Of a stretch of DNA of 64,000 nt, positions 40,464-64,000 are shown piece after piece; the first letter of the stretch is position 1; each line of letters begins with the position of its first letter. Under the pieces are notes generated by a model. The model made no database searches and had not been told where the DNA came from. It saw nothing but the letters and a program-made list of their open reading frames with translations. The translations under genes were made by a program, and so were the position numbers. Source of the stretch: Escherichia coli (GTDB lineage Bacteria > Pseudomonadota > Gammaproteobacteria > Enterobacterales > Enterobacteriaceae); NCBI RefSeq assembly GCF_003334255.1, contig NZ_QOWU01000006.1; one strand, given 5' to 3'.

Positions 40464-40831
40464 TCGACTGAACCCGACAACCGGATAGCGGGGGCTTTCA
40501 CCCCCGCTGCGGTTTCTTACTGTTTACACTGCAAGAACGCCGCAAATTCTGACCACATGATGTTAAGTCTGAACTCACACGGCGAACGGTGTATCATCCA
40601 GATGGTCAACAACATGGTTAAGCATAAAATGCTCACGATGATCGTTTTTTGCGGCATAGCGCTTGACTCCTTTTACAGGGAGGCGCTAACCTTCCACTTG
40701 TCTAGGGTAGGAATGGTTAGGGCCTCGGGTTAAACAATATGTTTGACTCGGGGCCTTTTCACATCCGGCCTTCAGGTAATCCTTCCAGCCGTCAGCCGAA
40801 AGGCACCCGCGCGTAATGTACTGGTTTTAAA
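40464..40831. repeat. Tandem repeat unit 2 (hok-like toxin locus), abutting prophage ogr
   Basis: Second copy ~474 bp downstream of the first; its right end overlaps the last ~13 codons of ogr. Confidence 0.85.
40517..40657 (-). CDS. Hok-family type I toxin (46 aa), copy 2
   Basis: Same ORF in repeat unit 2 with one substitution (V19I). Confidence 0.75.
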   Translation of the reverse strand: MPQKTIIVSILCLTMLLTIWMIHRSPCEFRLNIMWSEFAAFLQCKQ

Positions 40832-41094
40832 GCCATACCGCAATCCTCCAGTTGTAGCGTTAACTGACTGCGTCCCTGATGGGATTTGCGCATTGTCTCC
40901 CGTGGAATATCTTTATCGTGGAAGATCAACTGAGGCTGGCCAATAATTCTGTGCACACTTTCCATTGTTGAAAATGTGGCGCTGCACTCAAGGTTATTGC
41001 ACTGATAGTATTTGTAGCGGATGGTGCCGGTATCATTGGCGGCTTTACTGGTACGGATCCGGGCAGATGCGCCGCAGAATGGACAATGAAACAT
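40792..41094 (-). CDS. ogr: Ogr/Delta-type zinc-finger late transcription activator
   Basis: MFHCPFCGASARIRTS...YYQCNNLECSATFSTMESV matches the P2 Ogr Cys4 zinc finger; ~25-aa C-terminal extension relative to P2 Ogr runs into hok repeat unit 2. Confidence 0.85.
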   Translation of the reverse strand: MFHCPFCGASARIRTSKAANDTGTIRYKYYQCNNLECSATFSTMESVHRIIGQPQLIFHDKDIPRETMRKSHQGRSQLTLQLEDCGMALKPVHYARVPFG

Positions 41095-41138
41095 TGATAT
41101 ACCCCCCTGGCTGAACTGGGGTTGAACTCGTCGCCATT

Positions 41139-42263
41139 CTAACCATTGCTTTCCTTTTCGGCTATCCACTCGGGTATTCTTGCCTCCAGTTCAAGCCTTG
41201 TGGTGAAGCCGCTTCCGTCGATATTGTGTTCCACTTTTGCAATGAGCCAGTCCTGATTGTCTATTTCGGTTTTAAAGCCGGTTACCGTGCCATGCATTTC
41301 AGGGTAAAGCTCCGCTCTGCCCCGGGCCAGCGTGATGGAGAATTCAGCCGCACCGCGCTGTAATTGCTGCCACCTGGCGGCAGCTGCGCGCTGTGCAGCA
41401 ATTTCATTTGGGTAGGTTTTTCTCAGAACGAACACGTTACCTTCTGCCCCCTCCATGTAGCTGCCTTCCCGGCTGCTGCTCTTTTCAGCGTGAGTTTTTC
41501 GTTTTTTTATGTTGACGGCTTTCTTTTTGCCATGATTCAAATCCAGCCAGTACGCCTTCACCCCTGTGTATGCCTGGCGATCGGCTATTCTGAACTGGTG
41601 ACTGTCTCCGTCACTGCGTGCCAGTGCAAATGAGGGGAGTGGGCGCCCGTCAGCTGTCACGCCGCCACCCGGCAGAATGAACAGCAGACAGCCATTTTTG
41701 ACGGTAGTGATGGCTCCCAGCATATCAGCCATGCGGGTAAGGAATGACATGTCGCTTTCTTCCGTCTGGTCGGCATGATCGATTTCAATATCCATAAGCA
41801 TATCGCTTATCTGGGCTTTCAGTCCGTAACGGTGGGCAATAGCGGAAACCACGCGTTCAACAGTCACGTCGTGCCAGGATACTTCCCGTTTGACGTTAAA
41901 TTCCTCCCTGAAGTCTGCGCTGTTTGCACTCAGTGTCAGCCGATCCGGAGGTCCTTCATGAGCGACCTCATCAACAATGTAGGTGCCTTTATCAACCAGA
42001 GGCTCTCCCTTCCATCCCAGCATGACTCTGATGTGTGTTCCCCGCCCGGGGAGAGCCAGCTGCCCGTCGGCATCATCCAGCACAAGAGTGACCCTGTCTG
42101 CTTCAAACCCCCGGTTGTCTGTCATGGAAAGCGATATCACCCGGTTATTCAGTTCCTGAAGAGTGTTTTTATCCTGCTCCCTGTCCAGTGAAACGCTGAA
42201 ATCAGGCATTTTCACCAGTTCTTTCAGGGGGGAATAAACCGTGTTACCGTTCAGCAATACCAT
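41139..42263 (-). CDS. D: Phage late control/tail protein D
   Basis: 374 aa from ATG at 42263 with GGAGG upstream; size and position next to ogr fit gpD; longer ORF-track start would overlap FI. Confidence 0.7.
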   Translation of the reverse strand: MVLLNGNTVYSPLKELVKMPDFSVSLDREQDKNTLQELNNRVISLSMTDNRGFEADRVTLVLDDADGQLALPGRGTHIRVMLGWKGEPLVDKGTYIVDEVAHEGPPDRLTLSANSADFREEFNVKREVSWHDVTVERVVSAIAHRYGLKAQISDMLMDIEIDHADQTEESDMSFLTRMADMLGAITTVKNGCLLFILPGGGVTADGRPLPSFALARSDGDSHQFRIADRQAYTGVKAYWLDLNHGKKKAVNIKKRKTHAEKSSSREGSYMEGAEGNVFVLRKTYPNEIAAQRAAAARWQQLQRGAAEFSITLARGRAELYPEMHGTVTGFKTEIDNQDWLIAKVEHNIDGSGFTTRLELEARIPEWIAEKESNG

Positions 42264-62705: not shown

Positions 62706-62710
62706 ACACA

Positions 62711-63754
62711 ATGAGTAAACGCAAAAAATACACCGGAAAGCGGGGGCAGGATTCGCTACACGATGCACTGAAATCAACGCCTGCACTCAGCGCATTCACC
62801 TTTGATGGGCCCTATGAAGTCAGCCGCATGGATCTCCTGGATAACATGTCATGTGCAGATAACGGGCGCTACTTTGATACCCCCATGGACTGGAACGCTA
62901 TCGCCCGTGCATCCCGTCGTGCGTCCTGGCATCAGTCGGCTTTGTACTTCAAGCGCAACGCCCTGAACGGGTGCTTTGTTCCTCACCCTCTGCTGTCCCG
63001 CCAGGCGTTTTCAGCGTTTGCGCTCGACTGGTTTGTGTTTGGTAATGCCTATCTTGAAGTGCGGCGTAACAGGCTGGGGGAACCACTCCTGCTTCGCCCG
63101 GCACTGGCAAAATATACACGCAGGGGAAGTGACCTGGATACCTACTGGTATCTCAACGACGACGGTACGGAGTTCAGTTTCAGGAAAGGGACTGTGTGCC
63201 ACGTGCTTAATCCTGATATTAATCAGGAGATCTACGGGATGCCGGAATATATCGGCGGGTTGCTGTCTGTCAGCCTGTCAAACTCAGCGGATACATTCCG
63301 CAAACTCTACTACGATAACGGCTCGCATGCCGGGTGTATTATCTATGTAGGCACATCTCAGGCGAATGCGGAAAGTGTCGAGGCCATTAAAAAAACGCTT
63401 ACGGATTCCCGTGGTCGCGGGGCGTTTAAAAACCTGTTTCTACATGCACCGGGTGGTGGCAAGGATGGTGTGCAAATACTGCCGTTCCAGCAGATAACCG
63501 CAAAGGATGAATTCCTGAACATCAAGGGGAGCGCCCGCGACGATATCCTTGCTGCCCATCGTGTACCACCTCAACTGATGGGGGCAATGCCTGACGGGAA
63601 TGCGGCGTTTGGTGACGTTGAAAAAGCGGCGAGAGTGTTTTTCATCAACGAGTTGCAACCTGTCATGGAGGCCATGAAGCATGTCAATGAATGGCTTGGC
63701 GTTGAGGTGATGCGCTTTAACCCCTATGCCCTGCTTCTGGATAACGCCAGCTGA
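62711..63754 (+). CDS. Q: Portal protein Q
   Basis: LSAFTF, LDWFVFGNAYLEVRRN, LAKYTRRG, PDINQEIYGMPEY, HRVPPQLMG, FGDVEKAARVF match P2 gpQ across its length. Confidence 0.9.
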   Translation: MSKRKKYTGKRGQDSLHDALKSTPALSAFTFDGPYEVSRMDLLDNMSCADNGRYFDTPMDWNAIARASRRASWHQSALYFKRNALNGCFVPHPLLSRQAFSAFALDWFVFGNAYLEVRRNRLGEPLLLRPALAKYTRRGSDLDTYWYLNDDGTEFSFRKGTVCHVLNPDINQEIYGMPEYIGGLLSVSLSNSADTFRKLYYDNGSHAGCIIYVGTSQANAESVEAIKKTLTDSRGRGAFKNLFLHAPGGGKDGVQILPFQQITAKDEFLNIKGSARDDILAAHRVPPQLMGAMPDGNAAFGDVEKAARVFFINELQPVMEAMKHVNEWLGVEVMRFNPYALLLDNAS

Positions 63755-64000
63755 CGCGCTTCGCTTGTCTGCTGCTTCGCCGGGGCATAAAAAATTTATG
63801 CCCCGACTCTCCAGCTCCTGACGTCCGTTTCCCTCCCGATCTCCGACCTCGCCAGACGCATTCTGACGGCCTGTTTCCCTGACCATGTTTTGATGTGGTT
63901 TTTTAAAACAGGCTTTACTGCTGGCGTATCACGCGCAATACGACCCCAAATAAAGCAACCTGCCTTCCACCCCTCAATTCGGGCGCCCTTCCCTCGTCGC

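Follow-up and report, generated by a model that had tools for sequence, protein, structure and literature searches.

Within the P2 family of phages (Peduoviridae), Peduovirus P2 (NC_001895) has divergent P/O promoters with one common activator site, the late activator Ogr, an E/E' gene pair with a -1 frameshift, a P2-type integrase (Int) with arm repeats, and an attachment site (att) adjoining ogr, and its genes FI to D form a single rightward operon. Xuanwuvirus P88 (NC_026014) is an inducible, plaque-forming P2-like coliphage (PMC5285337). In the Shiga toxin (Stx)/lambdoid phages, the late, lysis-linked part of the genome carries a cassette in which a three-domain NanS-p gene is followed by DUF1378 (DUF, domain of unknown function), while the hok/sok loci of plasmid R1 and the chromosomal hokA-E have a small Hok-family open reading frame (ORF) with an upstream region matching the sok model. 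This study concerns a prophage directly downstream of serS in a 64,000-nt stretch of Escherichia coli DNA (contig NZ_QOWU01000006.1 of assembly GCF_003334255.1), hereafter the window. All coordinates are those of the window unless marked; L001 is the E. coli DETEC-S792 locus (NZ_CP116067.1).

Positions 39844-64000 very probably hold the attR (ogr-proximal) two-thirds of an intact temperate P2-family myovirus with the genome layout of P88. It is possible, although this is held only tentatively, that the phage represents an undescribed genus-level lineage of Peduoviridae, that it is the first non-lambdoid carrier of a NanS-p cassette, and that its Int recognises, at several loci (serS, zapB-rraA), the point where stem meets loop in a Rho-independent terminator; the lineage would be undescribed because no phage record exceeds about 30% genome similarity. 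The prophage is ordinary in kind and nothing in the findings challenges current understanding, so that the main value of the analysis lies in the correct annotation of the boundary, att site, and P88-type architecture of a rare E. coli prophage.

Gene content and completeness of the late region

None of the 31 window ORFs of the prophage has an internal stop, and each was given a P2-family late or accessory assignment. Matches to NCBIfam models exceed the curated cut-offs for the major capsid protein (P2 family), the tail tube, the products of I (tail), V (baseplate), and S (tail completion), and the PBSX-type portal (Table 1). The remaining structural and lysis ORFs were all assigned by PHROGs with E values from 1e-15 to 1e-151, a set that includes ogr, D, the sheath, E, E', the tape measure, U, the fibre, J, W, R, X, L, M, O, P, the holin, the endolysin, and the spanins. 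A tblastn search against the P2 genome matched 22 of the 31 ORFs to the expected P2 gene (E 1e-14 to 1e-156, 25-55% identity); similarity to P2-family proteins, on which a preliminary description of this DNA had relied, is therefore present and is far beyond chance. The genes for packaging, head, lysis, baseplate, fibre, sheath and tube, and tape measure are all present together with D and an Ogr-type activator. As in Peduoviridae, a P2-type capsid is accompanied by a gpO scaffold, gpM/gpP terminase, and gpQ portal in the divergent P-Q / O-N-M-L arrangement, and the contractile tail set FI, FII, E/E', T, U, and D by baseplate genes V, W, J, and I and fibre H. According to the preliminary description, a P2-like prophage lies directly downstream of serS and its late region, from ogr to Q, is complete. 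Both points hold.

The prophage had also been described as cut by the window edge. This is consistent with a copy in DETEC-S792 that is 99.6% identical to the window prophage and continues past Q through a replication endonuclease, a C-type repressor, a P2-type tyrosine integrase, and a second att core to dmsA; the complete element there is 35,994 bp long. The gene annotation of that copy agrees with the ORF map of window 40792-64000. Its early proteins have P2 counterparts, with an identity of 52% for Int, 36% for C, and 31% for A. The differences between the two copies amount to 85 mismatches and one indel, which falls in the loop of the conserved hairpin past Q. A defective remnant, with the late region alone left here and loss or rearrangement of the early region and int past the window edge, would fit a window that stops 246 bp past Q, and decay does occur among related copies, since V is frameshifted in E. 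coli 2013C-3033. Such a remnant is nevertheless unlikely, as all window ORFs are intact, so few differences separate them from a complete copy, and copies that are 97-99.6% identical at three loci imply recent mobility.

Gene order and putative late signals compared with P88 and P2

On the minus strand, with Q and P divergent, the order is O, N, M, L, X, holin, lysozyme, lysB/lysC, nanS-p and DUF1378, R, S, V, W, J, I, H, and the fibre-assembly protein. Beyond the latter, U-T-E'-E-FII-FI lie in the opposite orientation, followed by D, ogr, two hok/sok loci, and att. The FI-FII-E-E'-T-U block (42418-47993) is inverted relative to P2, so that D does not close the F operon as it does in P2. The near-colinearity with P2 that had been reported thus stands only for Q-P/O-N-M-L-X...R-S-V-W-J-I-H and D-ogr and does not extend to FI-U. 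P2 had been taken as the reference phage, but both the architecture and the closest relative are those of P88, in which the late genes stand in an identical order, FI-U is likewise inverted, D is divergent, hok is beside att, and S overlaps V. P88 also gives the best protein matches (39-79% identity) and shares the Ogr-type boxes and the hairpin past Q. It differs in having a DNA invertase and an invertible segment in the fibre region, parM/partition genes, an M15 endolysin, and a single hok, and in being without nanS-p/DUF1378; the distal part of its fibre, its holin, and its endolysin are unrelated to those of the window prophage.

Nucleotide similarity, calculated as aligned fraction times identity, is 28% to P88 over the whole element and 2% to P2, and the best megablast matches to any phage record have 72% identity over 14% of the query. 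By the convention of the International Committee on Taxonomy of Viruses, a genus requires at least 70% genome-wide nucleotide similarity. The element is therefore a P88-type P2-family phage outside the genus Xuanwuvirus by the usual rule: the gene order of that genus (inverted FI-U, divergent D, hok beside att) is found, while the similarity falls short.

That the prophage is truly of the P2 or 186 type (Peduovirus or Eganvirus), with a gene order colinear with that of P2, is highly improbable. In the comparison, which covered P2 and not 186, protein similarity to P2 extends across most late genes and the late functions are the same, but the nucleotide similarity to P2 is very low, FI-U is inverted with D/ogr divergent from it, and the att site and cargo are other than those of P2. 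Neither the holin nor the endolysin is homologous to its P2 counterpart (Y and K), and the DUF4376 fibre protein (48004-48591) in the G position is not homologous to G and has no match in the P2 or P88 genomes. The window prophage is also without lysA, orf30, and Z/fun, has no cargo at the Z/fun position, and lacks a separate V promoter gap. For P2, this reading is already refuted by the protein and nucleotide comparison. Contractile-tail genes and a lysis cassette could also belong to an R-pyocin-like tailocin cluster or to a phage satellite. That reading has a negligible probability and is refuted by the head and packaging genes, all of them intact: those for the portal, the scaffold, the major capsid, head completion, and the two terminase subunits.

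The putative late-control signals of this P88-type prophage also resemble those of P2. The ogr product has CxxC...CxxxxC cysteines that align with P2 Ogr, and one Ogr-type box lies in each of the divergent D/FI and O/P control regions. Both boxes are kept in P88 although the flanking spacers have diverged, and that of O/P lines up with the activator site annotated for pO/pP in P2. The centre of each box is about 55 nt from points 15-30 nt (for O/P, 19-26 nt) upstream of both flanking starts, which is the geometry recorded for P2; at the sequence level, a zinc-finger homologue is thus accompanied by TGT-N12-ACA-type sites about 55 nt from putative late promoters. Because S overlaps V, there is no separate V promoter gap, and a TGT-N12-ACA site inside S (52902) was rejected as a PV equivalent for being too distant from V. 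The box positions and the S/V overlap lead to a proposal of four late units, driven in both directions from each of two Ogr-dependent regions. The phage would be kept silent in the lysogen by a C-type repressor whose gene lies past the window edge; upon induction, Ogr would bind one dyad (TTGT-N12-AcAAC) in each control region and activate the units P-Q, O to G (to which the lysis genes and cargo belong), FI to U, and D(-ogr). The E frame stops at 44551. The frame at -1 stays open between the heptamer T_TTT_TTC (44494-44500) and 44709, a stretch that takes in the E' homology, and by analogy with P2 a -1 frameshift at the heptamer would yield the E+E' tail chaperone. The 3' end of E' overlaps the start of T, as in P2.

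Several observations weigh against an intact phage with these control and accessory loci. The window ends at 64000, so the completeness of the present copy beyond Q is taken from other genomes. The cos site, which in P2-family phages has 19-nt cohesive ends and would be expected here past the hairpin that follows Q, was not recognised: short-word BLAST and alignment of the sequence after Q against the P2 cos junction and P88 gave chance-level matches only, and a cos-like stretch downstream of Q (63823-63853, GGCGAGG...GGGAAAC) has a weak resemblance only. TGT-N12-ACA is not enriched overall in the prophage part (three found against about six expected), so only position and conservation argue for the candidate Ogr boxes. 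For the hok/sok loci, the Rfam sok matches, at 48.3 and 44.7 bits (one, in copy 1, with E=3.9e-8), fall short of the gathering score of 59, and neither hok copy has an evident mok frame.

Attachment site, distribution, and variation among copies

In K-12, the serS-dmsA spacer is 238 bp long and contains the terminator AAAAAGCGCC-TGCG-GGCGCTTTTTTT. Identity to K-12 ends in the window after ...AGCGCCTGCGGGCG at 39843 and restarts in DETEC-S792 at CCTGCGGGCGCTTTTTTT, 90 bp past the int stop codon, where the int-side copy of the core lies (L001 48829-48838). The 10-bp core CCTGCGGGCG is therefore the crossover region, which gives the element its length of 35,994 bp. Recombination by a P2-type tyrosine integrase module, which the complete copy carries, inserted the phage within CCTGCGGGCG, at the 5' stem/loop boundary of the serS terminator hairpin, and the predicted attP would carry AAATCTCCTGCGGGCGGTTTTTGC. 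The serS terminator is only partly restored at the junction, with one stem mismatch and a T5 tail, and was not called by a terminator scan. The repeat GTGTCCATATAATGTCCAT sits 50 bp inside the prophage and a near-identical repeat, GTGTCCATAAACTGTCCAT, is found in the 3' end of int (L001 48714-48732). The two are putative arm-type sites for Int, with a layout like that of the P2 arm sites P and P', where one site extends into the 3' end of int; the repeat of P2 itself is TGTGGACActgTGTGGACA.

These junctions alter some claims of the preliminary description and bear out others. The prophage had been started at 40792, but the core places the boundary at 39844, and about 950 bp more, with the Int arm sites and two hok/sok loci, belong to the prophage. 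The dmsA neighbourhood had been described as replaced, but dmsA is displaced by about 36 kb and is found past the second core in near-identical complete copies. The integrase and att site expected past the window are present before dmsA in the DETEC-S792 copy, and comparison with a prophage-free strain, proposed there as the means of defining attB, gave the 10-bp core when K-12 was used.

The same prophage, with an identical Int protein (WP_016237838.1), lies between zapB and rraA in E. coli JNEC-KY179. The K-12 zapB-rraA site is another terminator, AAAAAAGGCACC-TTGC-GGTGCC (K-12 locus L007 2815-2845), and both JNEC-KY179 junctions (L005 12500-12530 and L006 2380-2420) resolve to an exchange directly after the CC that ends the 5' stem, so the crossover point is the same CC/loop boundary and core as in the serS terminator. 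Occurrence of the same phage at two terminator sites amounts to a small natural experiment on site choice by a P2-type integrase. A literature search on serS, dmsA, and prophage found nothing.

At least 80% of the element is carried by 12 of 5426 complete E. coli genomes, several with strain names of Shiga toxin-producing E. coli, and the R-DUF1378-nanS-p junction occurs in exactly 12. Judged by its first position in the query, the match abuts serS in eight carriers, starts at the core in two, and starts past the arm repeat in two; one core-start copy was verified at zapB and one past-arm-repeat copy at ihfA. Recent mobility is indicated by the near-identity of copies at three loci. The late region of 2013C-3033 is 96.6% identical, with a different integrase and immunity module, and is inserted after ihfA. 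Distant relatives, some of them at serS, have about 81% identity over 35-37% of the query.

Near-identical copies differ in the stretch from Q to the replication genes (L001 36756-39100, L005 36432-39570, L008 35864-38790), which contains either a 178-amino acid predicted membrane protein, a 167-amino acid protein with DUF4760, or a regulator with DUF6516. This stretch is at the old/tin position of P2, just past window position 64000, and may hold defence cargo. A small gene annotated as 'ParE family toxin-like' is present in the early region of related copies (L005 45423-45632, L008 44863-45090), and its L001 equivalent (44456-44683) is labelled hypothetical. For several serS-site copies (genome matches H27-H30 and H32), the alignment is split in two and takes in about 660 bp more than is present in the window, which suggests a small insertion or an extra repeat in the late or hok region.

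Accessory loci and feature coordinates

The NanS-p/DUF1378 cassette (53493-55879) sits in the late operon between the lysis genes and R. By its sequence, the product of 53813-55879 is a full three-domain NanS-p homologue and a predicted 9-O-acetylesterase: Pfam identifies DUF1737, the NanS/SASA esterase domain, and a C-terminal lectin-like DUF6645, and structure matches are to PDB 3PT5 (E=7e-120) and 6YP6 (E=9e-60), the latter for the lectin-like domain. The motifs GQSN and HFSS, which hold the catalytic residues of NanS, are both unchanged in the alignment with it. NanS-p homologues occur in 347 phage records with at most 56.5% identity, and in a sample of 40 such records all are Stx/lambdoid phages of 43-68 kb, plus one 5.8-kb fragment. 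The 3' part of nanS-p, the spacer, and half of DUF1378 have 94% nucleotide identity to a lambdoid prophage with the order nanS-p, DUF1378, DUF826, holin, lysozyme, which indicates that the cassette was captured from a lambdoid phage. The order of domains and genes is that of the Stx/lambdoid cassette, whereas the position, past the lysis genes and before R/S of a P2-family genome, is different. A literature search on NanS-p and P2-like phages gave one review, in which the two are not linked. The cassette in the window shows that a gene for scavenging mucin sialic acid known from Stx/lambdoid phages also travels on P2-family phages. The nanS-p of Stx phages is expressed in lytic growth (PMC8065619), and a cassette inside a long late operon should be expressed likewise. 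The esterase would then be made in lytic growth and released at lysis.

The two hok/sok copies are 92-93% identical and form a tandem duplication with a period of about 472 bp, the repeat unit including the last ogr codons; P88 and the ihfA-site relative have a single hok copy. Assignment of the ORFs to the Hok toxin family is solid at the level of protein similarity (PHROG 251, E=5e-19; NCBIfam HokA, E=2e-9, below the curated cut-off). The loci resemble those of R1 and hokA-E in the small Hok-family ORF and the upstream region matching the sok model, but differ in that the 46-amino acid Hok is under the NCBIfam cut-offs, the locus is duplicated in tandem at a prophage end, and mok is not evident. 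Each hok contains a plus-strand promoter-like site, and an Rfam scan of 39000-64000 at E<=0.01 returned only the two sub-threshold sok matches. The two loci beside att probably act as addiction or exclusion modules.

Table 1. Positions of prophage features and the bacterial flank in the window (aa, amino acids)
Feature	Position	Strand	Basis or remark
serS (bacterial flank)	38513-39805	+	ORF; serS annotation in 99.6% identical record and in K-12
att core CCTGCGGGCG (attR in P2 convention)	39834-39843		Within serS terminator hairpin AGCGCC-TGCG-GGCGCT
Putative arm-type Int-binding repeat GTGTCCATATAATGTCCAT	39893-39911		Two TGGACA units 11 bp apart
Terminator-like hairpin before att, closing minus-strand transcription	39924-39953	-	11-pair stem, then T-run
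hok/sok-type locus, copy 1	39979-40351	-	hok ORF 40045-40185, 46 aa
hok/sok-type locus, copy 2	40454-40827	-	hok ORF 40517-40657; 5' end overlaps last ogr codons
ogr/Delta-type zinc-finger late activator, 100 aa	40792-41094	-	52% to P2 Ogr over 54 aa; PHROG 603
gpD tail protein	41139-42263	-	47% to P2 D, 79% to P88; PHROG 52
Divergent D/FI control region	42264-42417		Ogr-type box TTGT-N12-AGAAAC at 42324-42345
FI tail sheath	42418-43605	+	48% to P2, 76% to P88; PHROG 23
FII tail tube	43605-44114	+	TIGR01611 above cut-off; 45% to P2
E and E+E' tail chaperones	44162-44709	+	E' 50% to P2, 73% to P88; PHROGs 103, 1756
T tape measure, 930 aa	44699-47491	+	PHROGs; tblastn
U tail protein	47502-47993	+	46% to P2, 69% to P88
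Tail-fibre assembly or distal fibre protein (DUF4376)	48004-48591	-	PHROG 1141; G position
H tail fibre, 446 aa	48603-49943	-	N-terminal 211 aa P2-like; C-terminus different
I tail protein	49943-50566	-	NCBIfam above cut-off
J, baseplate/tail-completion block	50559-51455	-	PHROGs
W, baseplate/tail-completion block	51442-51807	-	PHROGs
V baseplate	51804-52385	-	NCBIfam above cut-off
S tail completion	52382-53026	-	NCBIfam above cut-off
R, baseplate/tail-completion block	53010-53477	-	PHROGs
DUF1378 small protein, 57 aa	53493-53666	-	Lambdoid-type cargo; PHROG 494
NanS-p-type sialate 9-O-acetylesterase (predicted), 688 aa	53813-55879	-	Pfam, PDB matches, PHROG 143
lysC	55869-56078	-	PHROGs (spanins)
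lysB	55987-56412	-	PHROGs (spanins)
Lysozyme (endolysin)	56409-56951	-	PHROGs
Holin	56938-57222	-	PHROGs
X	57225-57425	-	PHROGs
L	57425-57919	-	PHROGs
M small terminase	58024-58821	-	PHROGs
N major capsid	58862-59962	-	TIGR01551, 277 bits against cut-off 219.65
O scaffold/protease	59980-60816	-	PHROGs
Divergent O/P control region	60817-60971		Ogr-type box TTGT-N12-ACAAC at 60888-60908
P large terminase	60972-62705	+	47% to P2, 73% to P88; PHROG 5751
Q portal	62711-63754	+	TIGR01540 above cut-off; 45% to P2, 70% to P88
Conserved hairpin past Q, P2 tQ position	63781-63805	+	Identical in P88

For the tail fibre in DETEC-S792 (L001 21604-22944, equivalent to window 48603-49943), the Prokaryotic Genome Annotation Pipeline (PGAP) calls two pseudogene fragments, yet the 446-amino acid ORF is intact both there and in the window. 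The bacterial flank (1-39805) is ordinary E. coli core sequence, in the order art...poxB...macAB...clpA-serW-infA-aat-cydCD-trxB-lrp-ftsK-lolA-rarA-serS, and the tRNA-Ser(GGA) gene serW (24969-25056), a frequent target of prophages, is unoccupied here.

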